A stretch of DNA of 64,000 bases, from the NCBI GenBank assembly GCA_045401155.1, contig CP174360.1, positions 233,403-297,402 of the forward strand. Direction: 5' to 3'. Numbering within the stretch: the first letter of the stretch is position 1; every line of letters starts with the position of its first letter. Source of the stretch: Candidatus Minusculum obligatum. Its GTDB lineage: Bacteria > Patescibacteriota > Minisyncoccia > Phycocordibacterales > Phycocordibacteraceae. Below are positions 33 through 63,185 of this stretch, piece after piece. Made by a program: the position numbers and the translations under genes. The notes beneath the pieces are model-generated. The model was not told the DNA's origin. It saw only the letters and a list, made by a program, of their open reading frames with translations, and did no database searches.

Positions 33-1247
33 GTGTCTCGAGCAGTATATGCAATGCTCGAAGAGTGTTTTGAAAATACCAACAAAACAACTTTTGTTGT
101 TTCTGGAGAAGAAGATGCGAGTGTTTCTGGGGTGCATACAAAAATTGCGTACGCAACATTTGCTCGTATGCCTACAGAGAAAGCTCATGGTGCGTCTATT
201 GCACATATGTGCACCTCTTTTGTAAAGAGCGGGTTTGAAGTGCAACTTATAACGCCAGAGCGGAAAAATGTAATTGATACAGATATATATGAATACTATG
301 GTGTGCCGAACGTGTTCTCGCACACATATCTATCAGTACGGGATCTGTTATCTTTTTGTACGTCACAACTTTGTTTTTTCTTACAAAAAATATTATTTGC
401 ACGAGCTGTAGCAAAGAAGGCTCTTGCTCCAATTGTGTATACGCGAGATCCAGAGGTTGCGTTTTTCTTGAAGAAAAAGCGTACGGTTGTATTTGAGGCA
501 CACCGCATGCCTTCTGGAGTAAAGGCATCTATTGTTGGGTGGTTGTTGCGCGGAGTTTCTCTTGTTGTTGCAAACTCAAAAGGAACTGCCCAGGCATATG
601 CCTCTCAGGGTATAGAGAATATTGTTGTGGCGCCAAATGGTTTTGATGCAGCATCTTTTGATGTGGCGCATGCAAAAAAAGATGCACGTGCTGATCTTGG
701 AATTAAGGAGAGTATAAATGTTGCAATGTATGTTGGATCGCTAGAGTTGTGGAAGGGTGTGAAGACACTTTTTGAAGCAGCAGAAGGTTTGAGGCAGCAT
801 GGTATTGAAACGGTTGTTATAGGAGGAGGTGACAAGGAAGTAGAAAAACTTAAGGTAAAGTATCGCTCAGTTACATTTCTCGGATTTAAGCCGTATAAGG
901 ATTTGGCAAAAAATCTTCAAGCCGCAGATGTGCTCGTGTTGCCAAATACCAAGAAAGACACGCAGTCATTGAAGTACACGTCTCCTATTAAGCTATTTGG
1001 CTACATGGCCTCTGGGGTTCCTGTTGTTGCTTCAGATATTGAATCTATTCGAGAAGTTCTTACAGAAGATATGGGTGTTTTGGTTGCGCCAGATAATGTA
1101 GATGCACTTATCTCGGGAATTATTGGAGTTGTAGAGAGTGAGGGAAAAGGTCAGGAGCTTGCAGCTAATGCAAAAGAAGAGAGTAAGAAGTACACGTGGG
1201 ATATGCGTGGAAAGGCTGTTACTAGTGCAATACGTAACGTTATATGA
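33..1247 (+). CDS. Glycosyltransferase family 1 (GT4-like, GT-B fold)
   Basis: The 404-aa ORF has a C-terminal half with typical GT1 features: a FLG...K..L....ADVLVLP block and the EGFG-equivalent region 'KLFGYMASGVPVVASD'. The start is uncertain: GTG at 33, an alternative GTG at 132 giving '...HTKIAYATF', and the frame stays open to the window edge. Confidence 0.8.
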   Translation: MSRAVYAMLEECFENTNKTTFVVSGEEDASVSGVHTKIAYATFARMPTEKAHGASIAHMCTSFVKSGFEVQLITPERKNVIDTDIYEYYGVPNVFSHTYLSVRDLLSFCTSQLCFFLQKILFARAVAKKALAPIVYTRDPEVAFFLKKKRTVVFEAHRMPSGVKASIVGWLLRGVSLVVANSKGTAQAYASQGIENIVVAPNGFDAASFDVAHAKKDARADLGIKESINVAMYVGSLELWKGVKTLFEAAEGLRQHGIETVVIGGGDKEVEKLKVKYRSVTFLGFKPYKDLAKNLQAADVLVLPNTKKDTQSLKYTSPIKLFGYMASGVPVVASDIESIREVLTEDMGVLVAPDNVDALISGIIGVVESEGKGQELAANAKEESKKYTWDMRGKAVTSAIRNVI

Positions 1248-46028: not shown

Positions 46029-48053
46029 ATGGCAAAAGGAACGCAAGGCGGTAAAGGTAGCTACGGCGCAAAAGACATTACAGTTCTCGAAGGTCTTGAG
46101 CCGGTACGTAAGCGACCAGGTATGTACATTGGTACTACTGGTCCTGATGGTCTTCATCATTTGATTTGGGAGGTTTTTGACAACTCTCGAGATGAGGCAA
46201 TGGCCGGAGAGGCTGATGATATTGAGGTTGCACTTTTGCCTGATCATACGATTCGTGTAGTTGATAACGGACGAGGTATTCCCGTTGATAAACATCCAAA
46301 GACAAAAGTTTCAGCACTTGAAACTATTATGACGACACTCCATGCAGGAGGTAAGTTTGGTGGTGAGGGATACAAGGTGTCAGGAGGACTCCATGGAGTG
46401 GGAGTATCTGTAGTGAACGCTCTTTCAACTATGGTGCGTGCAGAGGTGCACAAAGAGGGGGATGTGTACATGCAGGAGTATGCGATTGGAATTGCACAGG
46501 CGCCAGTTAAAAAGGTTGGAAAGAGTGACCGGCGTGGAACTGTAATTACATTCCGTGCAGATGATTCTATTTTTGAAACAGTTGAATACAACTGGGATAA
46601 GATCGTGTCTCACTTGCGACAGCAGGCATATCTTGTAAAAGGTACGCGCATTTCAGTACTTGATGCACGTGAGAAAGATTTAGATCTTAAGAATGTATTT
46701 TATATTCGAGATTTAGGTGAAGAGATGCCATCTCAGAGTTTTTACTTTGAGGAGGGGCTTCGGTCTCTTATTGGATTTAAGAATCAGTACCAGACACCCG
46801 TACACAAAAACATTTTCTATATAGATCGTCAGATTGAAGATGTGCAGGTTGAGGTTGCGCTTCAGTATGTAGATGATATTTCTTCACGACTTACTGCATT
46901 TGCGAACAATACATACAACCCAGAAGGGGGTACGCACGTAACTGGATTTAAGACTGCGCTTACGCGTACGCTCAATAACTACGCGAAAAAGAATAATCTT
47001 GGCGCAAAAGATGAGGCGTTTACGGGAGATGATGTGCTTGAGGGAATTACCGCCGTGGTCTCAGTAAAGCTTCCAGAGATTCAGTTTGAGGGGCAGACAA
47101 AGGCAAAGCTTGGATCTGTTGAAGCTCGTGGAGCAACTGACACGGTATTTGCAGAAGCATTCTCATATTTCCTTGAAGAGCATCCAGAGGATGCAAAGCA
47201 GATCATTTCTAAAATCACGCTTGCACTTAAGGCACGAAAGGCTGCCAAGGCTGCCAAAGAGTCAGTGCTTCGAAAGGGTGCGCTTGAAGGAATGACGCTT
47301 CCTGGAAAGCTCGCTGATTGTTCTTCACGAACTGCAGAAGATTCAGAGATCTTCATTGTAGAGGGAGACTCAGCGGGAGGTTCTTCAAAGCAGGCTCGAG
47401 ATCGAAAGACGCAAGCCATCTTGCCGCTTCGAGGAAAGATTCTAAATGTAGAGCGGGCTCGTATTGATCGTATGCTTGCATCAGCTGAGATTAAGGCGCT
47501 TGTGATTGCGATGGGTACTGCAATTGGAGATGTATTTGATATTTCAAAGCTTCGCTACCATAAGATTATTATCGCAACAGATGCCGACGTTGATGGAGCG
47601 CACATTAGAACACTGCTTTTGACTCTATTTTATCGATACTTCAAGCCAGTTATCGAGGGAGGGTATCTATATATTGCACAGCCACCGCTGTATAAGATTC
47701 AGCAAGGAAAGAAGATTGATTACGTATATACAGAAGATGAGAAGGCAAAGCTTCTTGGAGAAGGTGATGTAGATCTTGTTGAGGCAAATGATGATGAAGA
47801 TGCAGAAGATGAAGAAGTGCAGAAGAAAAATTCCACAAAGGCTCGCATCCAGCGATACAAGGGACTTGGAGAGATGAACCCAAGTGAGCTTTGGGAGACA
47901 ACTATGGACCCAGAGAATCGTGTGTTAAAGCAGGTAACTATTAAGGATGCACAGGAAGCAGACAAGGTATTTGATATTCTTATGGGTACAGATGTGCCTT
48001 CTCGAAAGAACTTTATTCAGACAAATGCCAAGATGGCGAATCTAGACGTGTAG
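46029..48053 (+). CDS. gyrB: DNA gyrase subunit B (type IIA topoisomerase ATPase/Toprim subunit)
   Basis: 'LEGLEPVRKRPGMYIGTT' and 'HHLIWEVFDNSRDEAMAG' form the GHKL ATPase region. 'EGDSAGGS' and 'PLRGKILNVE' form the Toprim region. 'KIIIATDADVDGAHIRTLLLTLFYRY' is also present. Confidence 0.9.
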   Translation: MAKGTQGGKGSYGAKDITVLEGLEPVRKRPGMYIGTTGPDGLHHLIWEVFDNSRDEAMAGEADDIEVALLPDHTIRVVDNGRGIPVDKHPKTKVSALETIMTTLHAGGKFGGEGYKVSGGLHGVGVSVVNALSTMVRAEVHKEGDVYMQEYAIGIAQAPVKKVGKSDRRGTVITFRADDSIFETVEYNWDKIVSHLRQQAYLVKGTRISVLDAREKDLDLKNVFYIRDLGEEMPSQSFYFEEGLRSLIGFKNQYQTPVHKNIFYIDRQIEDVQVEVALQYVDDISSRLTAFANNTYNPEGGTHVTGFKTALTRTLNNYAKKNNLGAKDEAFTGDDVLEGITAVVSVKLPEIQFEGQTKAKLGSVEARGATDTVFAEAFSYFLEEHPEDAKQIISKITLALKARKAAKAAKESVLRKGALEGMTLPGKLADCSSRTAEDSEIFIVEGDSAGGSSKQARDRKTQAILPLRGKILNVERARIDRMLASAEIKALVIAMGTAIGDVFDISKLRYHKIIIATDADVDGAHIRTLLLTLFYRYFKPVIEGGYLYIAQPPLYKIQQGKKIDYVYTEDEKAKLLGEGDVDLVEANDDEDAEDEEVQKKNSTKARIQRYKGLGEMNPSELWETTMDPENRVLKQVTIKDAQEADKVFDILMGTDVPSRKNFIQTNAKMANLDV

Positions 48054-48054
48054 C

Positions 48055-48351
48055 ATGAAAGCGGTCTTTAATGGACATATTCTTGCAGATAGTACACATA
48101 CAATAGTGATTGAGCTAAATCATCACTTTCCTCCGGATACAGTTAATTTTGAGTATTTGAAAGAGAATGGAAATACTTCAGAGTGTCCATGGAAGGGTGT
48201 TGCTGAGTATTTTGATGTGGATGTAAAGGGGCATGTAATTAAAGATGGTGCGTGGCATTATCCGAATCCTAAAAAGGGTTCAGCACAGAGAGTGGGAGAT
48301 GACTTTACTGGCTATGTTGGTTTTGCTGAAGCAGTAGATATAGTTCCGTAA
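48055..48351 (+). CDS. DUF427-family small protein
   Basis: 98 aa. 'TSECPWKGVAEYFDV' and 'AWHYPNP' resemble the DUF427 conserved CPYKG.A.Y motif. The start lies 1 nt after the gyrB stop. Confidence 0.5.
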   Translation: MKAVFNGHILADSTHTIVIELNHHFPPDTVNFEYLKENGNTSECPWKGVAEYFDVDVKGHVIKDGAWHYPNPKKGSAQRVGDDFTGYVGFAEAVDIVP

Positions 48352-48398: not shown

Positions 48399-49160
48399 TT
48401 AGTTGGTTACGGTGATTTTTACAAATGCGCCGTTATTATTCTCATCTGATTCAGTGACACCGTTATTCTGGTCTACTGCAACTGAGATTTGTAGATCTTC
48501 TCCAACCTTAGATCGGTCAAATCCGATTACGTACTCAATCTTTTCTCCAGGGAGAAGGTTTTGTACATGCTGCTCTTGTCCTTCAAAGATATACGTAGTC
48601 TCTGTAGGCATCACAACATTGAATCGCCAGTTAGTTCCAGTCTCCTTAGTTCCATTGTTTGCTACCTGGAACTTTACTGCAATTCGATCATTTTTTACAA
48701 GATCTGATGTTGGAATAAAGTTTTCTGCTTGTACTCCTCCTACAAGTTTTCCTGTAGCAAGGATTGTTGGCACAAGGTCTGCCAATCCATTTGGATCTGA
48801 CACTGGAGATGGGTTCTGAGTAATTACCTCAGTATCCTCATTTCCTGGTGTAGGAGTAACTGGTGTTGTAGGAGCCTCTGGCTCCTCAGTTTCTTCCTCT
48901 TTATCTTCAAGTACGATAGGGAAGTTTGTATTTGGTGTCTCTGTGTCTACTACAATGACATTCTCATCTTGTACAAAGATAGATGTCACACCAATTACAG
49001 TCGCTGATAGCCCTTCTACTGCTCCATTAACAATAGTTGGTACAAATCGTGCTGCATTTCCCGCAAGTACTACGGCCAAAGTAAGTAGGGTAATGAACCC
49101 AACTACTGCAAGACCATTTACTGCTGCTTGTTTTGTTTCCATATTGCTTATAACGCTCAC
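48399..49160 (-). CDS. Membrane-anchored protein with C-terminal CARDB-like domain
   Basis: An N-terminal signal-anchor 'LAVVGFITLLTLAVVLAG' is followed by a Pro/Thr/Glu-rich linker. The C-terminal 'RIAVKFQVANNGTKETGTNWRF...ESDENNNGAFVKITV' has the CARDB hallmark (E.NE.NN). Confidence 0.6.
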   Translation of the reverse strand: MSVISNMETKQAAVNGLAVVGFITLLTLAVVLAGNAARFVPTIVNGAVEGLSATVIGVTSIFVQDENVIVVDTETPNTNFPIVLEDKEEETEEPEAPTTPVTPTPGNEDTEVITQNPSPVSDPNGLADLVPTILATGKLVGGVQAENFIPTSDLVKNDRIAVKFQVANNGTKETGTNWRFNVVMPTETTYIFEGQEQHVQNLLPGEKIEYVIGFDRSKVGEDLQISVAVDQNNGVTESDENNNGAFVKITVTN

Positions 49161-49219
49161 AAATAATGTGGCAGATTTTTACCATACACAAAGTATAATG
49201 TCAAGGAAGGGGGATTTGC

Positions 49220-49948
49220 GTGCTCTTGACATTGGGCATGTTTTCGTGTATTAATATGCCGGTAGATATGAGCGACATGAGCACTAAAGCAAACGGTTTC
49301 GCGTACGTGCTAGGTACGATTTTCAAGAACAAATGGAAGTTCTTGGCTTTTTCAGTACTAGCCTTCATCTTTTTTGTATGGATTCTTGGGAAGCTAGATC
49401 TTCTTCCAGAACCTGATACATCAAAGAGTTTAAGTACGATTACGATTGCGTCTGCGGCTGCAGCATTTCCTGTAGTTACAGATGTTGAGGAAGTTGTTGT
49501 TCCGGAAAAGCCACTTCGGGTGTCTATTCCGTCGCTTGATATTGATGTGCGTGTTAACAACCCGTACAAGAGTGATATTAAGACACTTGATGCTGCACTG
49601 TATGACGGTGTGGTGCGGTACCCAGGATCTGGAATGCTTGGAGAGAATGGAAACGTTGTTATCTTCGGGCACAGCTCATACCTTCCGGTAGTGAAGAATG
49701 AATACTTTAAAGCATTTAATGGTGTTCAGAAGCTTTCTACAGGAGATGTGATTGAGGTATACGGACTTGATACCGTGTATCGATATGAGGTTGCGTCTGT
49801 ATATGAGGCGGATGCCACAGATACACGCATTGCTCTTAGTAAGGATAGTAAGAAGCTAACGCTTTCTACATGTAATTCATTTGGTGATTTAAATGACCGA
49901 TATGTAGTAGAGGCGTACTTCGTGGGAAGCACACAGATTTCTTCTTAG
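49220..49948 (+). CDS. Sortase family transpeptidase
   Basis: N-terminal TM 'FLAFSVLAFIFFVWIL', the catalytic His context 'VVIFGHSSY', the active-site 'LTLSTCNSF' (TLxTC) and the downstream Arg 'RYVVEAY' are all present. The exact start among several in-frame ATGs is uncertain. Confidence 0.8.
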   Translation: MLLTLGMFSCINMPVDMSDMSTKANGFAYVLGTIFKNKWKFLAFSVLAFIFFVWILGKLDLLPEPDTSKSLSTITIASAAAAFPVVTDVEEVVVPEKPLRVSIPSLDIDVRVNNPYKSDIKTLDAALYDGVVRYPGSGMLGENGNVVIFGHSSYLPVVKNEYFKAFNGVQKLSTGDVIEVYGLDTVYRYEVASVYEADATDTRIALSKDSKKLTLSTCNSFGDLNDRYVVEAYFVGSTQISS

Positions 49949-50037
49949 AGATCTGTGTGCTCTCCGTGAGGGAGAGTGGAAAGAACATTACAATTGTCGC
50001 CGAGAATATCGGCGACGCAATAGAGAGGAGAATCGAG

Positions 50038-51183
50038 ATGTTCAAATATCTCGCACTCGCCGCGTCGCTGGTCTTTGGACTGGCGACGCCCGCAATTGCT
50101 CAAGTCGGCATGCCTATGTCGTATGAGCTCATGTCTCGTCCAGATGATGGATACTCCCAAGATGATCTCTTTGAGATCCGGGAGCGCCTTATCGTTCAGA
50201 TCGAAGCTTCGCTTCGTCTGGATCCGCTCGGAGACGCCTATATCGTCGGAACTCCGTGTTCGACGCCGAATGACTTTTTTCGTGCGTTTCGGGAATACCA
50301 TCCTGAACACGCTCCGGAAAATGTCGAAGATCTTCCGAGGTTCTTGCGTACGCTTCAACTGATGCGTGCACAAGAGCTCGGAATTCAGGGTGACACGTAT
50401 GCGTCTACGCGCATGATGTGTCACTCTGCAGATTCTTCTTCTTCGGAAGATGAGTTGGATCTCGAAGGTGTCGAGCGAGCCGTGCGTCTGAATGAGTTCG
50501 TGTGGGTTCACCCCAATGGCTCAGTCATGATGCTCGGGGATTGTTCGAACATTGTTCGGGCTCCGGTTACCTCCCAAGAAGCTTCGCCTGTTCCGCCGGC
50601 TCTTGAGGAGCCGTGGTACCAGCAGTGCCTGTTTGTTCCCGTCGGAACACGTCGGGGTGCGTCCTATCAATGGGCACATTTCCTACGCGAACCGATCCCC
50701 GGATCAAACTCGCAGACTTGTCGGGTGCTTTGTCAGGGCGTCTTGCGCAATGACGGAACGCCCCTGGTGGTTGAGGACACATGCATTCGTGCACCGCGTC
50801 CTTGTCAGGATTGCGAATGGGGCGAACAGCCTATTCCTTCGAGGTTTGAGGTTCAGGACAGCTCCCAGTGGGATGCTGAATGGGACCTCACCATGATCGG
50901 CATTAGTGTCGATGATGCACGTCTTGGTGGATACTTCGCAATCTGTGGCTATCAGGATGATCGTGAGCGTACCGGGGTTCCAATTTTTGAACCCAACGAG
51001 CTCGCCGATGCTGCGGATGCCGGAGTCTGGAATCAGGGGATTGTTGTTCCGTACTGGAATCGCGGTCCTACTCGTCAGATGCAGGCAGTGTTCCGTGTTG
51101 GCGACCTGGTGTACTTCCAGGATCGTCGCGGAAACGTCGAGGTTCGGGAAGATCCTTTGGATTTTTCTCGAGGTAATGAGTAG
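50038..51183 (+). CDS. Secreted Cys-rich hypothetical protein in a locally GC-rich segment (probable horizontal acquisition)
   Basis: The start is taken at ATG 50038, where a classic signal peptide 'MFKYLALAASLVFGLATPAIAQ' begins. Codon usage (GCG/CGC/GTC-rich) and GC content differ from the flanks. No recognisable family. Confidence 0.5.
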   Translation: MFKYLALAASLVFGLATPAIAQVGMPMSYELMSRPDDGYSQDDLFEIRERLIVQIEASLRLDPLGDAYIVGTPCSTPNDFFRAFREYHPEHAPENVEDLPRFLRTLQLMRAQELGIQGDTYASTRMMCHSADSSSSEDELDLEGVERAVRLNEFVWVHPNGSVMMLGDCSNIVRAPVTSQEASPVPPALEEPWYQQCLFVPVGTRRGASYQWAHFLREPIPGSNSQTCRVLCQGVLRNDGTPLVVEDTCIRAPRPCQDCEWGEQPIPSRFEVQDSSQWDAEWDLTMIGISVDDARLGGYFAICGYQDDRERTGVPIFEPNELADAADAGVWNQGIVVPYWNRGPTRQMQAVFRVGDLVYFQDRRGNVEVREDPLDFSRGNE

Positions 51184-51232
51184 CATTCGTGTCCGGGCAG
51201 GAAACTGTCCGGACACATCACCTCTCTTTTTT

Positions 51233-54073
51233 ATGATTATGATTTCAAAACCAACAAATATTCTAAGTTATGCAAAAGCACATCCGATTAAATCGGGGTT
51301 ACTTGCTGTGTTTACATTTTTTACGATTCTAGGAACTGGTTTTGGAACACTTTATGTTGTTGCGCCCGACACAGCAGAGGCTGTGCTAGTTGGTAACCCT
51401 TGTTGTACAACTGGTTGGGATCCTTGGGGGCCAGGAGGATGGAATCCTGAACCTGTTATTGATCCAGGATTTCCTGGTGGAGGCGGAGGTGGGGGAACTG
51501 TTCCTGCGCCAGTGTGTTCTCTTACTGTAAATCCAACTTCAATTGTTGAGGGTGATTCGGCAACACTTACGTGGGTAACACGATACGCAGATCTTCTTGC
51601 AATTGATAATAGTATTGGGAACCTTTCTGAGATTACAGGATCAGTAAGTGTTTCTCCTACAGAAACGACAACATATACGCTTGTGGCTCAAAACAGTTAT
51701 ACAGGGCGAACTGTTGAGTGTAATGCAACAGTTACGGTTACTGAGCCACCTGTAGTGCCAGTGTGTACGCTAAACGTAAATCCATCAGCTATTGAGCGAG
51801 GGGGCAGCGCAACCATTTCTTGGACAACTACAAATGGATCAACATTCCGTATTGGAGGTATCGGTGATCTAACTCCAGTATCTGGAGGATCAACCGAGGT
51901 TACTCCAGTTGCTGCAGGTACCTATACATATGTTGGAGTTGTAACGAGTGCAGATGGAAGTACTGCAACGTGTGAAGACACACTTACTGTTACTCCTCCA
52001 ATTGTTGTAAATCCACCAGTGTGTACGCTTGATATTGTTCAAGACACAATTACGATTGGTGAAAAAATCAATATTGATTGGGAGACACGTCATGCGAATA
52101 CTTTTAGTATTGATAATGGAGTGGGAGACATAAATCTTTGGACAGATCCAATTGCGAGTGGATCAGTTTCAACTACTCCAGGTTCAGAAGGGACCATTAC
52201 GTATACAGGAACTGCAACAAATACAGATGGAGATACGGTTGAGTGTTCAGACACGGTAACCGTGCTTCCAATTGGGATTGATACGCCAGCATGTACGCTA
52301 ACAGCAGATAAGTTCTCACTACTTCCTGGTGAGACCACAACTATTCGATGGACGCTTATAAACGTTACAGAAGCAACACTACAGCATCTAGACGCGGTGC
52401 AGATCATCGATCCTACAGATGGATCTCAGTCTGCAGTTGCGGGTACGTATACGCTTCGAGCTGGGAATGGTCTAGCGAGTGTTGAGTGTGAGGTAACCAT
52501 TGTACGGGTTACAGTAGATGCGCCAGCATGTACGCTAACTGCAGATAAACTCTCACTACTCCCAGGAGAAACAACTACCATTAATTGGACTATTGAGAAT
52601 GCCACAGAGGCGACACTACAGCATCTAGACGCGGTACAGATTATTGATCCTACAGATGGATCCCAGTCTGCAGTTGCAGGTACGTACACACTTTCAGTTG
52701 GAAACGGAACGTTGTCTGAAACATGTGAAGTTACAATTGTGCGTATTACTCCAGGAACACTCAGTTGTGATCTAAATATTGATCGAGCAATTATTCGTTC
52801 TGGTGAGACTGCTGAAATTAGCTGGACCACAAACGAGGCGGTAAGTTTTGAGATTAATGGAGAAGACAAACCCCTTAATGGTTCTGAGACTATTCAACCG
52901 CTTGGTGTACAGATCCACACATACACGGGAATTGCGACTGATGCAGATGGAAATACAGTTGAGTGTGAAGACACTGTTCAAGTAACTGGAGGTTCAGGAG
53001 GTGGAGGTCTTTCGTGTGCGATGAGTTTTGATCGATCTGCAATTCGAGCAGGGCAATCAGCAACACTTCGTTGGGAGGTGCGCAATGCCGATGTTAATAC
53101 TATTGAGATCAATCAAGGTATTGGAAATGTAGCACCGCTTGCTTCAGAGGAGGTTCGTCGAAGCGATACTGGTACACATGAGTACGTTCTTACCGCTCGA
53201 GGAGATGGAGATCAGGTTACGTGTCGAGCGACACTAACTGTTTCAGGTGGATCAGGATGTTCTGGAAACTGTGGAGGTGGATCTACACCACAGATCAGTA
53301 TTGATTTCCTTAAGACTCCTGGAGAGCAGGCGCTTGCCTTCGTGACTCTTTCACAGATTCCATATACTGGACTTGAGCTAGGTCCTGTTGGAGCCGTAAT
53401 TTACTGGGTATTCCTAATTGTATGGAGTGGTGCTGTTGCATATCTTGTACTGTTTAAGGCTCTTCCATTTGCACGTCGAAAGCTTGTGATGGTTGGAGAA
53501 GACGTAATGGAGGTGCTTGATGCAAGTAAAGAGGATACAATGTACGCATCTATGCCAGAGGAAAAAGAGCACGTGGAATTTCTACCAAACCAGAAAGGGG
53601 ATGATGCGCTATCTGTAGAAGATATCGTACGTGGCCTCTCACGTATGCATAAGGAAAAGGCTCCAGAGGAGAATGTGCTTGATGAGATAGATGTTGCTGC
53701 TGAGATGGAGCTTCCTCCAGTTGAGAAGGTTGCACCAGTTACTAGTGGGGAAGATATGCGTCTTCTAAATGCAATTATCTCAGGTGATAAGGATGCAAGC
53801 TTTGGAATTCTTCGACGAGTTATCCGAAATGGTGCTCGAGCAGAGGATCTATTTGAAAAAGTCCTTGTGCATCTTGATAGCGCATACCGAGCACGTGTTG
53901 ATGGTGCGTATGTAGATGAAGATGTGCGTCGAGCAACCGCATCTCTCGACACAGCACTTCTTGAGGAGGTTATTACCGCACTTGCTCCGGCAATTGATAC
54001 AACCTACTCACATGCACAAACTGGTGCAAAACTTGCACTTACTCGAGTGCATCAGGTGATTGCGCGTGGTTAA
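51233..54073 (+). CDS. Large surface protein: N-terminal TM, ~8 Cys-bracketed Ig-like repeats, LPXTG-like IPYTG + TM + RRK segment, and a ~230-aa C-terminal cytoplasmic domain
   Basis: The start is taken at ATG 51233 (MIMISKP...), downstream of the GC-rich gene. The repeats look like 'P.C.L...P..I..G...T..W.T......I....G.........V.P..TT.YT..A.N..G..V.C...VTV'. After the repeats comes 'GGSGCSGNCGGG', then 'LSQIPYTGLELGPVGAVIYWVFLIVWSGAVAYLVLFKALPFARRK', then a soluble E/D-rich domain. Confidence 0.65.
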   Translation: MIMISKPTNILSYAKAHPIKSGLLAVFTFFTILGTGFGTLYVVAPDTAEAVLVGNPCCTTGWDPWGPGGWNPEPVIDPGFPGGGGGGGTVPAPVCSLTVNPTSIVEGDSATLTWVTRYADLLAIDNSIGNLSEITGSVSVSPTETTTYTLVAQNSYTGRTVECNATVTVTEPPVVPVCTLNVNPSAIERGGSATISWTTTNGSTFRIGGIGDLTPVSGGSTEVTPVAAGTYTYVGVVTSADGSTATCEDTLTVTPPIVVNPPVCTLDIVQDTITIGEKINIDWETRHANTFSIDNGVGDINLWTDPIASGSVSTTPGSEGTITYTGTATNTDGDTVECSDTVTVLPIGIDTPACTLTADKFSLLPGETTTIRWTLINVTEATLQHLDAVQIIDPTDGSQSAVAGTYTLRAGNGLASVECEVTIVRVTVDAPACTLTADKLSLLPGETTTINWTIENATEATLQHLDAVQIIDPTDGSQSAVAGTYTLSVGNGTLSETCEVTIVRITPGTLSCDLNIDRAIIRSGETAEISWTTNEAVSFEINGEDKPLNGSETIQPLGVQIHTYTGIATDADGNTVECEDTVQVTGGSGGGGLSCAMSFDRSAIRAGQSATLRWEVRNADVNTIEINQGIGNVAPLASEEVRRSDTGTHEYVLTARGDGDQVTCRATLTVSGGSGCSGNCGGGSTPQISIDFLKTPGEQALAFVTLSQIPYTGLELGPVGAVIYWVFLIVWSGAVAYLVLFKALPFARRKLVMVGEDVMEVLDASKEDTMYASMPEEKEHVEFLPNQKGDDALSVEDIVRGLSRMHKEKAPEENVLDEIDVAAEMELPPVEKVAPVTSGEDMRLLNAIISGDKDASFGILRRVIRNGARAEDLFEKVLVHLDSAYRARVDGAYVDEDVRRATASLDTALLEEVITALAPAIDTTYSHAQTGAKLALTRVHQVIARG
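52283..52762 (+). repeat. Tandem 240-bp (80-aa) near-identical duplication encoding two Ig-like repeat units
   Basis: The copies 52283-52522 and 52523-52762 align base-for-base at about 85% ('cgccagcatgtacgctaac(a/t)gcagataa...cagcatctagacgcggt(g/a)cagat(c/t)at(c/t)gatcctacagatggatc(t/c)cagtctgcagttgc'). The antisense ORFs 52090-52407 and 52426-52869 translate to near-identical peptides, which corroborates the duplication. Confidence 0.75.
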
Positions 54074-54126: not shown

Positions 54127-55899
54127 TTATTGTTTTGGCGCTAGAAGCCTTCCGTCTCTTTCCTCTCTAAGTTTTTCTACTGCCGCATCAATTGAAAGCG
54201 GGTCAAGTTTTCCAAGATCTCGGTGTTCAAGAATAATTTCATCACTCTCAACCTCCTTGTCTCCGAGCACGATCATGTACGGTACGTACTGTCCTTTAAA
54301 TGCATATAGTCGCTTACCAAGAGATGTGTCTTCTTTGTTTATGTTTGCACGAAGGCCAGCATCCTCAAGCTTTTGTTTTAGCTCCTCTGCTTTCTCATGG
54401 TGCGCCTCAGCTACGGGCACAATTCCAACTTGTACAGGTGAGAGCCATAGAGGGAATTTTCCAGCAAAGTGTTCGATCGCAACTCCAAGGAACCGCTCAA
54501 GAGATCCAGAGATGGCTCGGTGGATCATCACTGGGCGCTTCTTAGACCCATCTTTGTCCGTGTATTCAAGTTCAAATCGTTCTGGAAGGTTGAAATCAAG
54601 CTGTGCAGTTGCAAGCTGCCACTCTCGTCCAATTGCATCTGTTGCAATGAAGTCGATCTTTGGTCCATAGAATGCTGCCTCACCAACACCAATTTCAAAT
54701 GTCTGTCCCACAGCCTCAATACATTCTTTTAGTGTATTAATTGAGCTCTCCCATAGTTTCTCATCTCCAAGGTAGTTCTCTGGTTTCTCAGGATCATTTG
54801 TAGATAGGCGAATACGAAGGGGCATATCAAATACCTCATAGTACTTAGTGATGATATCGTAAATTGCGAGCACCTCATCCTTTACTTGGTCCTCGGTACA
54901 AAATACGTGTGCATCGTCTTGTGTAATGCTTCGTACACGTGTAAGTCCTGCAAGTTGTCCTGTATTCTCGTCTCGATATACGGTTGTTACTTCAGAGTAT
55001 CGAATAGGAAGATCTTTGTACGATCGGGGAGATGAAGCAAAGATCTGCGTGTGGTGCGGACAGTTCATGGGCTTCATGATGAACTCATCACTTGTTTTCT
55101 TGCTTTTTACAAAGAAGATATCATCTGCAAATTTATCGTAGTGGCCGCTTGTTTTGTATAGATCACACTTTGCCATGTGAGGGATATTTACACGCTCATA
55201 CCCATACGGCTTCATGAGGCTCCATACAAAGTCTTCAAGCTCCTTACGCATGATATTTCCTTTAGGGGTGAAAAGGGGGAGTCCGCTTCCCACAAGAGGA
55301 GAAAAGGCGAATAGGTCTAGTTCTTTTCCGATCTTTCGGTGATCCCGCTTCTTTGCCTCTTCTTGCTGCTCCTTGTACTTTTCAAGGTCTTCTTTTGTCT
55401 CAAATGCGATTCCATATACACGGGTAAGCATCTGATTATTCTCATCTGCTTGCCAGTATGCACCAGCAACATTGCTCAGCATGAATGACTCAGGATCAAT
55501 GTCTTTTGAGGATTCTACGTGTGGTCCTTCACAAAGGTCAGTAAAGGTTCCGATTGTATATGTGGTGATCTTTTCTCCTGCAGTATTGATTTTCTCGATC
55601 AACTCAAGTTTGTATGGCTGATCTTTAAATCGCTGCTTTGCGTCATCGTATGAAATCTCATGCATCTCTGGAGTAAATCCTTCTTTAAGGATCTCGCGCA
55701 TAATTTCTTCTAGTTTTGGAAGATCTTCAGGAGAGATAGGGTTTTGAAGCTCTACGTCGTAGTAGAAACCATTATCTGTTGCGGGTCCCGTTCCGAATTT
55801 CGCTGTCTCATCATGTTCTAGAATTGCGCCAGCTAATACGTGGGCAAGTGAGTGTCTGATCTTTAAAAGTTTTTCTTCCATATACTGTGTACTATACAA
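54127..55899 (-). CDS. thrS: Threonine--tRNA ligase (lacking N-terminal TGS domain)
   Basis: 'RHSLAHVLAGAI', class II motifs 'FRDE...GLTRVRSITQDDAHVF', 'HRAISGSLERFLGVAIEH' and the C-terminal anticodon-binding domain. 590 aa; an alternative start is at 55881. Confidence 0.9.
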   Translation of the reverse strand: MYSTQYMEEKLLKIRHSLAHVLAGAILEHDETAKFGTGPATDNGFYYDVELQNPISPEDLPKLEEIMREILKEGFTPEMHEISYDDAKQRFKDQPYKLELIEKINTAGEKITTYTIGTFTDLCEGPHVESSKDIDPESFMLSNVAGAYWQADENNQMLTRVYGIAFETKEDLEKYKEQQEEAKKRDHRKIGKELDLFAFSPLVGSGLPLFTPKGNIMRKELEDFVWSLMKPYGYERVNIPHMAKCDLYKTSGHYDKFADDIFFVKSKKTSDEFIMKPMNCPHHTQIFASSPRSYKDLPIRYSEVTTVYRDENTGQLAGLTRVRSITQDDAHVFCTEDQVKDEVLAIYDIITKYYEVFDMPLRIRLSTNDPEKPENYLGDEKLWESSINTLKECIEAVGQTFEIGVGEAAFYGPKIDFIATDAIGREWQLATAQLDFNLPERFELEYTDKDGSKKRPVMIHRAISGSLERFLGVAIEHFAGKFPLWLSPVQVGIVPVAEAHHEKAEELKQKLEDAGLRANINKEDTSLGKRLYAFKGQYVPYMIVLGDKEVESDEIILEHRDLGKLDPLSIDAAVEKLREERDGRLLAPKQ

Positions 55900-55902
55900 C
55901 GA

Positions 55903-55928
55903 AATGCGGCCTCTGGAGGCCGCATTTC
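55903..55928 (-). terminator. Hairpin (AAATGCGGCCTC-tgga-GGCCGCATTT), putative terminator for the upstream minus-strand small gene / 5' element of thrS
   Basis: A perfect 10-bp GC-rich stem with A/T flanks lies in the 183-bp gap between the gene 56083-56370 (-) and the thrS (-) start. A second GC hairpin sits at 56041-56067. Confidence 0.35.
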
Positions 55929-56082
55929 ATCTTTGAACTACAACCACCAGGGGGCGTCTACACGGTAGTAGTTGTTGTAGTTGTGTTATTCATAATCAAT
56001 ATCTAAAAGGTAGCAGATGGGAGAGGGAAGTCAATAATAAAGGGCGTCGCGGTATGTTGCGGCGCCCCAAAACAGAGGTGCG

Positions 56083-56370
56083 TTAAGCGATTGTTGCCTC
56101 GATTGCCTCGAGGACAATTTCTCGAAATGATTTACTGCCTTTACTCGAGAGTAAAAGCAGGTTTCCACCAAGACTCTCAACGTGTTCTACGAACGTGTCC
56201 CAGTAGAGTTCTGGACCTTTGCAGATCATGTTGATTGCCTTAATGTGGTCCCCGTTTTTTGCCTCCTTAAGGATCGGGGAGAAAAATTGTTGTTTAGCTC
56301 GCCATTCTTCCGAAAATGATTTTAGGAATATGGTGACGGGCTCGAAGGTGATTGAAAACTTTTCAAGCAC
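56083..56370 (-). CDS. Hypothetical protein (95 aa)
   Basis: An ORF with no recognisable motifs, in the same orientation as dnaE and thrS and followed by GC-rich hairpins. Confidence 0.35.
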   Translation of the reverse strand: MLEKFSITFEPVTIFLKSFSEEWRAKQQFFSPILKEAKNGDHIKAINMICKGPELYWDTFVEHVESLGGNLLLLSSKGSKSFREIVLEAIEATIA

Positions 56371-56420
56371 TGTTCCTCTCCCAGTTGCCTGTTTGTAAAG
56401 TAAAACATTTTATAGAAAAG

Positions 56421-59400
56421 TCAAAGAGACTGGAGCTTATCAATGATGATACTTGTTTCTCCATTTCGTCCCGAGAGACTTCCTTTAAGCACAACGCAAG
56501 AAGAAGGGTAGATTATTTCTGCAGATTGTTCGTATACCTTAGGGAATACTACGCACTCAATAGAGCCAGATTTGTCTTGGATTTTTACAAAGGCCATTCG
56601 ATCTCCTTTCTTTGTTAAAAATGGCTTTGCTTCTTCAATCATTCCTGCAATCACGATCGGTAACCCGCTCTTTGGTCCATGTAGGATGTGGTGAATATTT
56701 CTTTTTACCGTTTTTAGTTTCTCTTCAAATTCATCCAGTGGGTGTCCAGATACATAAATTCCAAGCAATTCTTTTTCCCATACAAGTTTTTCTTTAAGTG
56801 GCGCATCTTCTGCAGGAGCAAGATCAAGTCTGTGCGTTGGCATAAGTTCTCCAAAGAGAGAGTCTTGGGATCCTTTCTCATGGCCCGCTTCTTTATGGAA
56901 GGTGATGAGTTGGTCAATATTCTTTAGAAACTCTCCTCGAGTTCCAAGGGAATCAAGCGCTCCAGATTTGATAAGTGACTCCAGTCCTTTACGGTTCAGT
57001 GCACTACTTGTTACGCGAGAGAGGAAGTCTGCAATATTTGTAAACTTTCCGTTTTCTTCACGTTCCTTGATGATTGCTTCTGCCACTCCTGCTCCAAAGT
57101 TTTTAATAGACACAAGTCCAAAGCGGATCTTTGTATTGTTCTCCACGATGGTGAAATCACTATTACTTTCATTGATGTCAGGAGGAAGTACGGGGATTCC
57201 CATGCGCTCACATTCTGCAATAAGTATTGAAATCTTTTCAGTGTCTCCCGCATCAGCAGTTAGAAGGGCTGCCATATACGGCACAGGGTAATTAGCCTTC
57301 ATGTAGGCTGTTTGGTACGCCACACGTCCATAACTTGCGGCGTGTGCTTTGTTGAATCCGTATCCGGCAAATGGGGCAATAAGGTCCCAGATTTGATTTG
57401 CTTTTGCGAGGTCTGTGCCATTATCGACGCATCCTTGAAGGAATTTCTCTTTCTGCTTTTCCATCTCCTCTGGAATTTTCTTACCCATAGCTTTTCGGAG
57501 CTTGTCAGCTTCAAGCCATGAGTATCCTGCGATATTAATCGCAATGAGGAGCACGTCATCCTGATAGGTGATCACACCGTGAGATGCTTCGAGAATATCT
57601 TTCATTTTCTCATGCATATAACTCACTTTCTTTGGATTGTGTTTTCGCTCAATATATTCAGGAATAGAGTCCATCGGTCCAGGACGATACAGCGCCACCA
57701 TCGCGTTGATGTCATTAATGTTTGTGGGCTTTAGTTCCTTGAGGAATCTAGTCATTCCAGAACCATTAAGCTGAAAGAGTCCTTCTGTTTGTCCTGAGGC
57801 AAGGAGCTTAAAGGTGATTGGGTCATCTACCGGAACATTTTCAATATCAATTTCATCTCCTGTTTCTTCTTTAGCGCGCGCCACGGCATCAGCCAAAATC
57901 GCAAGGTTTTTAATACCAAGGAAGTCAAACTTAATAAGGCCCGCATCTTCTACGGCATGCATGTCGTACTGCGTGATAAGTTTTCCTCCCTTCGGGTCGT
58001 GCTGGATTGGTGTCCATTCATGAAGTGGAGAAGGGGAGATCACCACCCCGGCGGCGTGCACTCCAGTTTGCCTAGCGCATCCTTCAACTTTCTTAGCAAG
58101 ATCAATGATTTCCTTTGCATCTTCATCCCCTTTATAGAGTTTTTTAAGATCAGGCTCAATTTGAAGTGCTCGTTCGATTGTCATGGGGAATCCCTGGCTT
58201 CCCATAGGAATAAGTTTTGCAATCTTATCTCCAACCATGTAGGCGTGTCCGAGTGCTCGAGCAGTATCTCTGACCGCGGCACGGGCTGCCATGGTTCCAA
58301 ATGTACCAATCTGCGCTACGTGGTCTTCACCATACTTTTCTCGAGCATAGTTAATAACCTCATCACGACGGTTATCAGCAAAGTCCATATCGATATCAGG
58401 AGCAGAAGGTCGCTCAGGGTTTAGGAATCGTTCAAAAGGTAGTCGGTATTCAAGTGGATCCACATTTGTAATACCAAGCACATAGGTTGTAAGAGACCCA
58501 GCAACAGATCCTCGAATGGTTGTAAGGATTTTATTTTCTCTAGCAAAACGAAGGAGGTCCGCCACAATAAGGAAATATGGAGCAAATTTCTTTTGCTCAA
58601 TAATATCTAGTTCGTAGTTTAGACGATCTACGACCTCTTTAGTTTCTTCAAGGCCCCGATTTTTAATACCCTCAAAGGCAAGTCGCCTAAGCTCATCTTG
58701 GTACTCTAGGCCGCTTGGTACCTCAATGTCAGGGAACACCCATTTCCCAAGATCAAATGAAAGATCTATTTTATCTGCAATCTTTTTAGAGTTTTCAATT
58801 GCTTCTGGAAGATCCTTAAATGCTTTTTCAATATCTTTTGGCTTTTTAAATGAAAGGTCTAGGTTTCCAGCAGCTTTTGCATGTCGTCCTTCGCGGATAC
58901 GCATCAGCACTTCTCGCGCTTCTTTATCTTCAGGTTTGATGTAGTACACCTCTTGGTTCGCAACAAGGGGTACATTTTCTTTTTCTGAAAGAGTTACGAT
59001 CTTTTCATTTAACGCTTTACGATCTTTATTTTCTGGGTGATCAGTGATTTCAAGATATAGATCGTCTTTGTATATATCTTTATAGGTAGCAAGGAGTGCT
59101 GAGGCACCCTCGATGTCATTTTGAAGGAGTAGGTTAGAAGTTTCGCTTTGGTACGCTGGAAGAATCGCAATTACTCCTTCGCTGTGGTTGGTAAGAAGTT
59201 CTAGATCTACACGTGGCCGCTCCCAAAAGCCAGTAAGGTATGAGTCTGAGACAATTGCAAGAAGGTTTTTATATCCTTTTTCATTCTTTGCAAGAAGGAT
59301 AATTCGAGCCAGATCATGCTCTCTGTCATGCGGGTCAGTTCTATTACCTGGAGCAACGTATGTGTGTACACCAAGAATGGGTTTAATTTCTTGTTTCTCA

Positions 59401-59564
59401 CACTCTTTATAAAAGGCGATAGCGCCGTGTAAGTTTCCGGCATCAGTAAGTGCGATTGCGGGCAATTCGTGCTTTTTTGCCTCTGCTACAAGCTCTTTTA
59501 TCTTTGGGAGTGCCCGAAGGAAGCTGTAGTGGCTGTGAGTGTTTATTTGCACATAATTGCTCAT
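56421..59564 (-). CDS. dnaE: DNA polymerase III alpha subunit
   Basis: 'MSNYVQINTHSHYSFL' is the PHP domain start. 'GSVAGSLTTYVLGITNVDPL', 'PDIDMDF' and 'GLFQLNGSGM' mark the polymerase core, and a C-terminal OB region is present. The start is taken at ATG 59564. Confidence 0.93.
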   Translation of the reverse strand: MSNYVQINTHSHYSFLRALPKIKELVAEAKKHELPAIALTDAGNLHGAIAFYKECEKQEIKPILGVHTYVAPGNRTDPHDREHDLARIILLAKNEKGYKNLLAIVSDSYLTGFWERPRVDLELLTNHSEGVIAILPAYQSETSNLLLQNDIEGASALLATYKDIYKDDLYLEITDHPENKDRKALNEKIVTLSEKENVPLVANQEVYYIKPEDKEAREVLMRIREGRHAKAAGNLDLSFKKPKDIEKAFKDLPEAIENSKKIADKIDLSFDLGKWVFPDIEVPSGLEYQDELRRLAFEGIKNRGLEETKEVVDRLNYELDIIEQKKFAPYFLIVADLLRFARENKILTTIRGSVAGSLTTYVLGITNVDPLEYRLPFERFLNPERPSAPDIDMDFADNRRDEVINYAREKYGEDHVAQIGTFGTMAARAAVRDTARALGHAYMVGDKIAKLIPMGSQGFPMTIERALQIEPDLKKLYKGDEDAKEIIDLAKKVEGCARQTGVHAAGVVISPSPLHEWTPIQHDPKGGKLITQYDMHAVEDAGLIKFDFLGIKNLAILADAVARAKEETGDEIDIENVPVDDPITFKLLASGQTEGLFQLNGSGMTRFLKELKPTNINDINAMVALYRPGPMDSIPEYIERKHNPKKVSYMHEKMKDILEASHGVITYQDDVLLIAINIAGYSWLEADKLRKAMGKKIPEEMEKQKEKFLQGCVDNGTDLAKANQIWDLIAPFAGYGFNKAHAASYGRVAYQTAYMKANYPVPYMAALLTADAGDTEKISILIAECERMGIPVLPPDINESNSDFTIVENNTKIRFGLVSIKNFGAGVAEAIIKEREENGKFTNIADFLSRVTSSALNRKGLESLIKSGALDSLGTRGEFLKNIDQLITFHKEAGHEKGSQDSLFGELMPTHRLDLAPAEDAPLKEKLVWEKELLGIYVSGHPLDEFEEKLKTVKRNIHHILHGPKSGLPIVIAGMIEEAKPFLTKKGDRMAFVKIQDKSGSIECVVFPKVYEQSAEIIYPSSCVVLKGSLSGRNGETSIIIDKLQSL

Positions 59565-59607
59565 ATTGGAGCTAGTATACCAAATCAAGATGGTATAGTT
59601 ATTTTAT

Positions 59608-62234: not shown

Positions 62235-62300
62235 TCAACAACATCCCGCAGTACATGCGGGATTTTGTGTGGTACTTTTTATGTATACGTTCTTTGTATG

Positions 62301-63185
62301 GCAAACCGACACCTTGCACGAAGTATAGTGTTACAGACACTCTTTGAGTGGGACTCTGCTGAAGCAGGGAAGATTGATGTTGCCGATGCATTGACTCGAA
62401 ATATAGAAGAGTTTGCTCCAGACTCTAAAGATCACGCCTTTATGGAAGGGCTTCTAGATGGTGTGCTTGCAAAGCAAAAGGACATTGATCTTATTATTGA
62501 AAAAGCTGCACCGGATTGGCCGCTTGAGAAAATTTCTACGGTAGATAGAAATATTTTACGTATTGGATTGTTTGAGCTGTTGTTTGCAGATCGAGAGCAG
62601 GTTCCTGCAAAAGTGGCAATTAACGAAGCAATTGAGCTTGCTAAAACATTTGGAGGAGAGAGTAGTGGACGTTTTGTAAATGGAGTATTGGGAGCGGTAT
62701 ATAAAGAGATTGGAGAGCCAGGGAAAAATGATACTGGAAAGAAGAATAAAAAAGATATTCCAGTAGAGAAATATGGTGGAGCAGTAGTCTATGCCATTGA
62801 TGATGGGCAGACGTACCTTGCGCTTGTGCATGATATCTTCGGGCACTGGACGTTATCTAAAGGGCATATTGAAGAAGATCCTTCTGTTGAAGCTGGCATT
62901 AAGCGCGTAATTAAAGATGAGCTTGATCTTGATGTCGAGGTAGAGGAAAAGGTTGGAGAAAATGATTATGTTGCAAGTCATCCTGAAAAAGGAAAGATAA
63001 AAAAGGTTGGAATTTATCATTTGGCACGGGCTGATTTTGCTCCACTGACACTAAAAAAATCAGGAGGACTAGATGACGCAAAGTGGTTTAAATTGCAAGA
63101 CATACTTGAGCTCAATTTCTATCGTGATATGCTCCCTGTAGTTACCGAGGCGGTACAGACTCTGGCAGCTAAGAAAGATTCATGA
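62301..63185 (+). CDS. nusB: Transcription antitermination factor NusB fused to a C-terminal Nudix-like domain
   Basis: Residues 1-140 are a NusB fold ('ARSIVLQTLFEWD', 'RNILRIGLFELLF', 'AINEAIELAKTFGGESSGRFVNGVLG'). The C-terminal ~150 aa ('GAVVYAIDDGQTYLALVHDIFGHWTLSKGHIEEDPSVEAGIKRVIKDELDL...') has a Nudix-fold layout with a degenerate box (REx2EE replaced by RVx2DE). The start is taken at ATG 62301. Confidence 0.75.
   Translation, partial: ANRHLARSIVLQTLFEWDSAEAGKIDVADALTRNIEEFAPDSKDHAFMEGLLDGVLAKQKDIDLIIEKAAPDWPLEKISTVDRNILRIGLFELLFADREQVPAKVAINEAIELAKTFGGESSGRFVNGVLGAVYKEIGEPGKNDTGKKNKKDIPVEKYGGAVVYAIDDGQTYLALVHDIFGHWTLSKGHIEEDPSVEAGIKRVIKDELDLDVEVEEKVGENDYVASHPEKGKIKKVGIYHLARADFAPLTLKKSGGLDDAKWFKLQDILELNFYRDMLPVVTEAVQTLAAKKDS

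Follow-up and report, generated by a model that had tools for sequence, protein, structure and literature searches.

Nucleotides (nt) 48399 to 54073 of the DNA analyzed here, a stretch of 64,000 nt from Candidatus Minusculum obligatum (GenBank assembly GCA_045401155.1, contig CP174360.1, positions 233,403 to 297,402; below, the window, whose own positions are used throughout), contain a four-gene cassette that is conserved in Paceibacteria and that, judging from sequence, most likely encodes a dedicated sortase-substrate system. The four products are a membrane protein with a CARDB domain, a sortase, a cysteine-rich secreted protein here called Mid, and a 946-amino-acid (aa) protein in which the LPXTG-like motif LSQIPYTG is followed by a transmembrane (TM) helix and a cytoplasmic tail. 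The genes lie between gyrB/DUF427 (46029 to 48351) and thrS/dnaE (54127 to 59588, minus strand), and all four were found where an earlier reading of the letters alone (the original prediction) had placed them.

The conservation of the cassette was assessed in a census of 185,579 genomes, one per species, which gave 234 confirmed motif sites, and the best 80 loci were retrieved (L005 to L084). Each of these contains, per 20-kb locus, a single motif-containing open reading frame (ORF) with a tail of the same class as in the window (class I, see below). When these 80 loci were taken together with four others (L001 to L004), 57 were informative in that the sequence available upstream of the motif ORF is 3 kb or longer, and in all 57 a sortase gene of the same subfamily is present on the same strand 0.7 to 2.8 kb upstream. 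The CARDB gene was identified in 56 of the informative loci, the exception being L013, and an ORF of the Mid family occupies the gap between sortase and substrate in most related loci. The cassette sits in a gyrB-thrS/dnaE-rnhB neighborhood; the order in the relatives read by hand is gyrB, CARDB (minus strand), sortase, a 320- to 376-aa Cys-rich protein, the motif protein, thrS (minus strand), and dnaE (minus strand), and in L001 the order is rearranged and the flanking genes are absent.

The pairing of the sortase with the IPYTG protein, proposed originally for the window alone, is therefore syntenic wherever it could be assessed, and it is kept where the ectodomain and the tail are unrelated. 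In L086, the motif protein has an unrelated ectodomain and a short tail, and the order of genes is gyrB, a CARDB-like gene, sortase, a gene for a small Cys-rich protein, the motif protein, and thrS. The L086 sortase matched the hidden Markov model (HMM) of the cassette sortases at 2.9e-58 and the motif was matched at 1e-24, and the tail had no match to the tail HMM. Similarly, the motif protein of L085, also with an unrelated ectodomain and a short tail, is followed by thrS and dnaE, and the upstream cassette genes lie beyond the end of the contig. Because L086 and L085 keep the slot despite the replacement of ectodomain and tail, the motif and the TM helix are the element that travels with the sortase. 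Across loci, the ectodomains consist of immunoglobulin (Ig)-like repeats, of a proline linker only (L003), of CPxGYTGTYPNC repeats (L085), or of acidic/aromatic repeats (L086), and three members contain SpaA-type prealbumin domains (8.8e-8), which are typical of sortase-anchored proteins.

The arrangement of motif and TM helix is also widespread outside the retrieved loci. An exhaustive search of 1.84 billion proteins with a profile of these two elements only (54 positions), with clustering at 50% identity, gave 1004 cluster representatives at E values of 1e-3 or below and 491 at 1e-10 or below, and the number of the former argues against a chance arrangement; a word-indexed search with the same 54-aa profile returned nine short ORFs only. 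A search with the C-terminal 266 aa of the window protein gave 81 homologues that span the motif to the C terminus, with motif, TM helix, and tail in all but the weakest few (E values, 1e-49 to 1e-24). Wherever the source names the organism, these homologues derive from Paceibacteria/Kaiserbacteria-type metagenomes. All relatives are metagenome-assembled genomes of Paceibacteria, Kaiserbacteria, or Parcubacteria, in agreement with the host of the Candidate Phyla Radiation (CPR) type suggested originally. Many of the records for L005 to L084 are titled "uncultured Candidatus Saccharibacteria bacterium"; these labels look default or mis-assigned, and they do not look like evidence for the cassette in Saccharibacteria.

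Short homologues of 260 to 300 aa, starting about 15 aa before the motif, were considered as evidence against a sorted ectodomain and were rejected. These entries represent truncated public gene calls, since the orthologous ORFs are open upstream as far as the N-terminal TM segment in four of four loci read by hand. In L001 to L004, the public calls have an internal start just before the motif, and the repeats either are uncalled or lie under spurious antisense ORFs. Long antisense ORFs that resemble these spurious calls are also present in the window (49945 to 50511, 50704 to 51216, and 52426 to 52869, all on the minus strand).

Sortase, motif, and membrane topology

The sortase belongs to the sortase superfamily, with a match to PF04203 at 1.8e-21 (76.6 bits; cutoff, 26.6) and to TIGR01076 at 40.5 bits (cutoff, 39.35), and its GTG start is preceded by the ribosome-binding site AAGGAAGGGGG. 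The catalytic triad, described earlier as intact, was confirmed residue by residue (Table 1), and among 60 cassette sortases the conservation of the His, Cys, and Arg motifs is 90% or higher. The nearest solved structure is that of Clostridium perfringens SrtD (4d70; 1e-11). A classification of the enzyme, which had been proposed as a check, assigned it to none of the NCBIfam classes: it scored below every class cutoff (SrtD, 41.8 bits against 140; class D, 40.8 against 165; class E, 36.3 against 160; class C, 29.1 against 160; class GN, 24.4 against 158; class F, 22.5 against 166; and class B, 11.9 against 154), with the highest scores for classes D and E. By sequence, the cassette sortase most likely forms a subfamily of its own, nearest to these two classes.

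In the 946-aa protein, IPYTG, a hydrophobic helix, and the basic ARRK follow one another as described earlier. In a set of 294 unique sequences, 80 of which came from a search pattern in which the motif is required and the remainder from profile searches, the L, P, T, and G of the motif are 100% conserved, S is 99% conserved, and Y is 98% conserved; the first position of the pentapeptide is I in 72% and V in 22% of the sequences. The variants observed are IPYTG, VPYTG, LPYTG, MPYTG, IPQTG, IPKTG, VPHTG, and VPSTG, with Y, Q, K, H, or S at the x position. After the motif come L-[DE]-L-G-P-x-G-T and then the TM helix, which has the conserved pattern Y-W...L...W....A-Y with near-invariant Y-W, L, and A-Y. 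An acidic residue two positions past the G is common in LPXTG signals, and the cassette motif has the same feature. The window protein has the elements of such a signal in the expected order, namely a PxTG pentapeptide (with I or V, not L, at position 1), a TM helix, and then a basic cluster.

A six-frame scan of the window for [LIVMFA]PxT[GASN] followed by a TM segment gave one site in a real gene, IPYTG, so that the window, like each 20-kb locus, contains one motif ORF, as expected at this scope for a dedicated pair. The genome probably has no second protein with the IPYTG-TM-basic arrangement, an outcome that the original prediction had counted against a sortase substrate. A lone motif protein does not refute that assignment, because one sortase with one target is the signature of a dedicated system (PMC3237569).

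The distribution of charged and cysteine residues indicates how the protein is oriented in the membrane. Lys and Arg are absent from the 15 residues before the TM helix, and four are present in the first nine residues after it; in addition, all 18 Cys residues are N-terminal to the motif and the tail has none. The positive-inside rule and the confinement of Cys to the ectodomain support a cytoplasmic location of the tail, as had been proposed.

Ectodomain, cytoplasmic tail, and accessory genes

Hydropathy points to an export signal in the 946-aa protein, a hydrophobic segment with Lys and His residues ahead of it (Table 1), and this feature is common to the orthologues. The Cys pair that follows in the window protein has counterparts in the relatives: PPCC occurs shortly after the N-terminal TM segment in 34 of 60 orthologues, usually followed by a long polyproline run, and such an adjacent-Cys pair is not a lipobox.

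The ectodomain was originally described as eight Ig-like repeats. The fold was supported, and the count was corrected to seven by repeat alignment; the repeats are 78 to 90 aa long, with one bracketing Cys pair in each. An AlphaFold2 (AF2) model of repeat 2, based on an alignment of the repeats, is a seven-strand beta-sandwich with a predicted local distance difference test (pLDDT) score of 95.2, and Foldseek matched it to Rib, PKD, FnIII, and Ig domains with TM-scores of 0.6 to 0.7. A Pfam scan of the 946-aa protein matched no Ig family by sequence. The repeats are thus Ig-like at the level of the fold, given the resemblance of the modeled sandwich to these domains. Repeats 4 and 5 (nt 52283 to 52756) are 81% identical in protein sequence, indicating a recent internal duplication, and the other pairs are 27% to 43% identical. 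The repeats are visible in the protein only, as Tandem Repeats Finder identified no DNA tandem repeats in the ectodomain. Among orthologues, repeat number ranges from zero to at least seven. In the window protein, a linker, GCSGNCGGG, connects the repeats to LSQIPYTG.

The tail is acidic, as described earlier, and the length given for it, about 230 residues, holds if counted from the motif (233 aa); counted from ARRK it is 196 aa. In an AF2 model based on a 79-sequence alignment (mean pLDDT, 77.6), the C-terminal helical bundle has pLDDT values above 93, and a continuous helix (aa 718 to 768) extends the TM helix into the cytoplasm. The bundle has the helical collar fold of clamp-loader domain III, and the AAA+ domains I and II of clamp loaders are absent from the tail. 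Searches of the tail sequence against Pfam, NCBIfam, and PDB profiles gave nothing significant, the only weak Pfam matches being DNA_pol3_gamma3 (E value, 0.12, in 2 of 79 members) and Rep_fac_C (E value, 0.11); the resemblance is therefore one of fold only. A dnaX gene was sought in the window for comparison with the tail, and none is present there. In clamp loaders, domain III forms an oligomeric collar, and we speculate by analogy that the tail may form oligomers or dock onto a partner.

The tails fall into at least three unrelated classes. Class I tails, as in the window, have 240 to 320 residues after the motif; class II tails have 80 to 125 residues and end in (G/A)IDPFIxSQIxR; and class III tails have about 100 to 125 residues and end in DxMxV...G..PRIxIxR. 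Proteins of classes II and III are encoded in the chromosomal slot described above, as the L086 and L085 loci show. Among 100 new representatives with a placed motif, about 60 have 240 to 320 residues after the motif and about 33 have 80 to 130. Two short entries (P0086 and P0090) end 40 to 47 residues after the motif and are possibly truncated. Five tails (P0015, P0019, P0039, P0041, and P0044) contain, between the TM helix and the bundle, two to four tandem copies of EP[IV]YE[NKH]VEP, which resemble EPIYA- or YxN-type tyrosine motifs; the tail of the window protein has a degenerate acidic version only, EENVLDEIDVAAEMELPPVEKV.

The upstream membrane protein combines an N-terminal TM segment with a CARDB domain (3.4e-10; 40.5 bits; cutoff, 22.7), as originally described. 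Its orthologues in L001 to L004 are 30% to 36% identical to it, and each adjoins the sortase gene.

The Mid protein has the signal peptide MFKYLALAASLVFGLATPAIAQ and 10 Cys residues; its start codon (ATG at 50038) is preceded by a ribosome-binding site, and it had no match in Pfam or NCBIfam. The ORFs in the gap between sortase and substrate form one BLAST-connected family of 62 nodes including the window protein, whose best match in the family is that of L038 (1.6e-15). The mid gene has a GC content of 54.6% and a GC content at third codon positions (GC3) of 53%, with sharp borders, against 43% GC for the genome and GC3 values of 25% to 39% for the neighboring genes. The same excess was seen in relatives: the mid relative in L087 (48% aa identity) has a GC3 of 0.555 against 0.23 to 0.30 in the flanks, the one in L088 (90% aa identity) has the same GC3 excess, and the slot gene of L086 has 70% GC against 57%. 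The original prediction took this gene to encode an acquired secreted protein. Secretion is in line with the signal peptide; acquisition as foreign cargo was considered and rejected, because the slot family is kept in most loci and the GC excess is common to relatives, so that mid is not a recent foreign insertion. The high GC content of mid is maintained rather than recently imported.

Table 1. Features of the sortase cassette in the window
Feature	Residues (aa)	Position (nt)	Strand	Basis or remark
Membrane-anchored CARDB protein, 253 aa		48399-49160	-	Pfam CARDB PF07705
CARDB protein, N-terminal TM segment		about 49053-49118		
CARDB protein, CARDB domain	147-244	about 48429-48722		
Sortase, 242 aa		49220-49948	+	PF04203; from GTG 49220
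Sortase, N-terminal TM anchor		about 49334-49396	+	
Sortase, catalytic His151	151	49670-49672	+	FGH151SS
Sortase, catalytic Cys218	218	49871-49873	+	TLSTC218
Sortase, catalytic Arg227	227	49898-49900	+	NDR227YV
Cys-rich secreted protein Mid, 381 aa		50038-51183 (ORF from 49957)	+	From ATG 50038; signal peptide, 10 Cys
Putative sortase substrate, 946 aa		51233-54073	+	ORF and architecture; bitopic or type I membrane protein
Substrate, N-terminal hydrophobic segment	21-44	51293-51364	+	Hydropathy; signal peptide or signal anchor, followed by AEA/V
Substrate, PCC	56-58	51398-51406	+	GNPCC in the window; then Gly/Pro/Trp-rich linker
Substrate, seven Cys-bracketed Ig-like repeats	92-669	51506-53239	+	Repeat alignment, AF2, Foldseek
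Substrate, LSQIPYTG	706-713	53348-53371	+	IPYTG is aa 709-713, nt 53357-53371
Substrate, predicted scissile bond	T712-G713			
Substrate, TM helix	719-741	53387-53455	+	Hydropathy
Substrate, basic cluster	742-750	53456-53482	+	K742...R748 R749 K750 (K-ALPFA-RRK)
Substrate, cytoplasmic tail	751-946	53483-54070	+	pI 4.63, no Cys
Tail, conserved helix LSVEDIVRGLSR	795-806			
Tail, C-terminal helical bundle	840-945	53750-54067	+	

Two other genes of the window lie outside the cassette. One (62265 to 63185, plus strand) encodes a NusB-NUDIX fusion (NusB, 4.5e-35; NUDIX, 6.2e-8), which is also found 3' of dnaE/rnhB in L002 to L004. The other is a giant ORF of 3430 aa (15657 to 25949, plus strand) with an N-terminal HTH_17 match (1.9e-7), a match to Peptidase_S74 (endosialidase chaperone) near aa 2977 to 3026, and two C-terminal Bact_surface_Ig-like domains (1.4e-34). 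Given its N-terminal helix-turn-helix domain, the true start of this surface Ig-like protein may lie further downstream. The six-frame scan of the window identified no [IV]PxTG-TM signal in this ORF.

Proposed cleavage of the putative substrate and alternative explanations

We propose that the membrane-anchored sortase would recognize a single cognate protein, whose gene lies about 1 kb downstream. This substrate would be exported via its N-terminal hydrophobic segment, would display a fast-evolving ectodomain (seven disulfide-bracketed Ig-like repeats in the window), and would be retained in the membrane by LSQ[IV]PYTG-L-[DE]-L-G, the TM helix, and the basic residues. It is moderately likely, on the evidence of the sequence comparisons, that the sortase cuts between T712 and G713 and transfers the ectodomain to the wall, where the acceptor would be an amine of the peptidoglycan precursor. 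The product left behind would be a membrane stub with a conserved cytoplasmic domain, the clamp-loader-domain-III-like bundle in the case of the window protein, and the CARDB and Mid proteins would be constant accessory members of the system. The reading of IPYTG as a sortase site is based on the invariant P, T, and G with a tolerant x position, the acidic residue after the G, and the TM helix with its basic cluster, as well as on the export signal, the extracellular Cys residues, the conserved triad, and the linkage to the sortase, which survives replacement of ectodomain and tail.

Several observations weigh against this model. Canonical sortase signals are C-terminal, with the motif, the TM helix, a few basic residues, and then the end of the protein. 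In the window protein, 196 residues follow ARRK, and none of the 100 new representatives with a placed motif has fewer than 45 residues after it. An NCBIfam scan of the 946-aa protein at E values of 0.1 or below was empty, no LPXTG-anchor profile being matched. The TM residues Y30, W31, L34, A42, and Y43 are at least 92% conserved, which is beyond the needs of a sorting signal, and a helix so conserved could be a permanent TM interaction element. In addition, the sortase falls within no characterized class, and its specificity is thus not inferable from relatives.

The internal position of the signal and the overconserved TM helix leave room for an explanation, unlikely but to be taken seriously, in which the protein is never cleaved and stays bitopic for good, joining a variable surface domain to a cytoplasmic domain, with LSQIPYTG and its TM helix as a structural module for interactions beside and within the membrane. 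Such a module might dock to the TM segments of the CARDB protein or of the sortase, which are equally conserved, and the sortase would act elsewhere or noncatalytically. This would account for the unusual conservation of the TM residues and for the length of the sequence after the motif, which is at least 40 to 47 aa in every sequence and at least ~80 aa except in a few unverified short entries. Each class of tail also ends in a conserved peptide or domain peculiar to it, which suggests that the mature protein makes use of its cytoplasmic end. However, the six-frame scan gave no alternative substrate for the sortase in the cassette or in the window, its catalytic triad is under conservation, and an invariant P, T, and G with a tolerant x position is exactly the pattern of a sortase site. 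It is rather improbable that IPYTG is processed but not anchored to the wall, i.e., that the ectodomain is shed by hydrolysis or ligated to the CARDB or Cys-rich protein in a hetero-oligomer or pilus-like structure. Class C sortases polymerize pilins, the building blocks of which are similar to Ig-like and SpaA-like ectodomains, and such an assembly would give roles to the CARDB gene (present in all but one informative locus) and the mid ORF (present in most), to which none is assigned. Nevertheless, the class C model gives the sortase a lower score (29 bits) than do those of classes D and E (36 to 42 bits), and inspection of the Mid sequences showed that their N termini past the signal peptide are not conserved. 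No pilin-type motif or conserved acceptor came to light, although no search aimed at either was made.

The long tail could also be an artefact, a sorted protein joined by fusion, frameshift, or misassembly to a downstream cytoplasmic gene, and the frequent errors in public gene calls of this family, many of which start just before the motif, might be cited in its favor. These errors shorten the N terminus and not the tail, though, and an uninterrupted ORF comprising ectodomain, motif, TM helix, and tail is present in 84 of 84 loci from independent assemblies. The 81 homologues covering the motif to the C terminus point in the same direction, so that the probability of an artefact is negligible and this explanation is effectively refuted.

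Returning to the cleavage model, one extension of it would be that cleavage serves as a coupling device. The adhesin would be anchored to the wall, and the stub would act in the cell, its DnaX-collar-like bundle oligomerizing or docking onto the clamp loader or replisome, so that surface assembly would be reported to, or positioned by, the cytoplasm. We regard this extension as doubtful and put it forward only tentatively.

Relation to known systems

Sortases are common in CPR bacteria (PMC6744442). Little is understood of the envelope and the host attachment of this group, in which the cassette is among the few conserved syntenic surface systems. The ectodomain that it encodes is hypervariable, repeats being gained or lost and domains exchanged, as would be expected of a host-contact or phage-exposed protein. 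The LPXTG-like motif and TM helix occur in the middle of the protein throughout a large clade-wide family (about 1000 clusters, hundreds of Paceibacteria species genomes). If the motif is cleaved, each anchoring event also yields a defined cytoplasm-facing membrane protein, which would be a simple means of coupling display to the intracellular state; if it is not cleaved, an LPXTG-like module can serve as a permanent anchor. If the coupling proposed above holds, the cassette would be comparable to regulated proteolytic signaling but driven by a sortase, with a new class of internal sorting signal in about 1000 protein clusters. Motif, enzyme, and predicted products are specified in enough detail that cleavage of a peptide could be tested directly.

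The cassette resembles the SrtA/LPXTG paradigm in its enzyme, which has a sortase fold with His, Cys, and Arg and an N-terminal anchor, and in its substrate, which has an export signal, a [hydrophobic]-P-x-T-G motif, an acidic residue, a TM helix, and a basic cluster. It differs from this paradigm in that [IV]PYTG lies inside the longer LSQ[IV]PYTGL[DE]LG, in the conserved sequence of the TM helix, in the internal position of the signal with 80 to 320 cytoplasmic residues after it, and in its CPR host. Furthermore, the best class score of the cassette sortase is 42 bits against NCBIfam class cutoffs of 140 to 165.

A dedicated sorting enzyme encoded beside a single target is an established pattern (PMC3237569). 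An example is TIGR03784, the "class GN/marine" sortase of Gram-negative bacteria, whose single LPXTG target is encoded beside it, so that one enzyme, one target, and accessory genes are likewise combined (PMC3237569). However, the cassette has another sortase subfamily (24 bits against the TIGR03784 cutoff of 158), another motif, and another target family, and its target keeps a cytoplasmic domain.

A loose precedent for the remnant of a sortase substrate carrying information is C-pep of Streptococcus gordonii. As cited in PMC11326707, C-pep is what stays in the membrane once sortase A has processed an adhesin, and a two-component kinase senses it. Whereas C-pep is only the canonical signal of ~30 aa and its kinase is a separate protein, the cassette remnant would be ~230 aa long and would contain a folded domain. 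In its fold only, the tail bundle is similar to clamp-loader domain III (DnaX gamma/tau, delta, delta', and the RFC collar) and to the C-terminal domain of MgsA, but it differs from clamp loaders in being membrane tethered, in lacking AAA+ domains, and in having no significant sequence similarity to them.

A search of the accessible literature gave no description of the IPYTG motif, of the cassette, or of a cytoplasmic-tailed or internal LPXTG signal. Dedicated pairs of sortase and sorting signal are known, and what is new in the cassette is that an enzyme of a distinct subfamily is combined with an extended motif, likewise distinct, and with a cytoplasmic extension that is obligatory.

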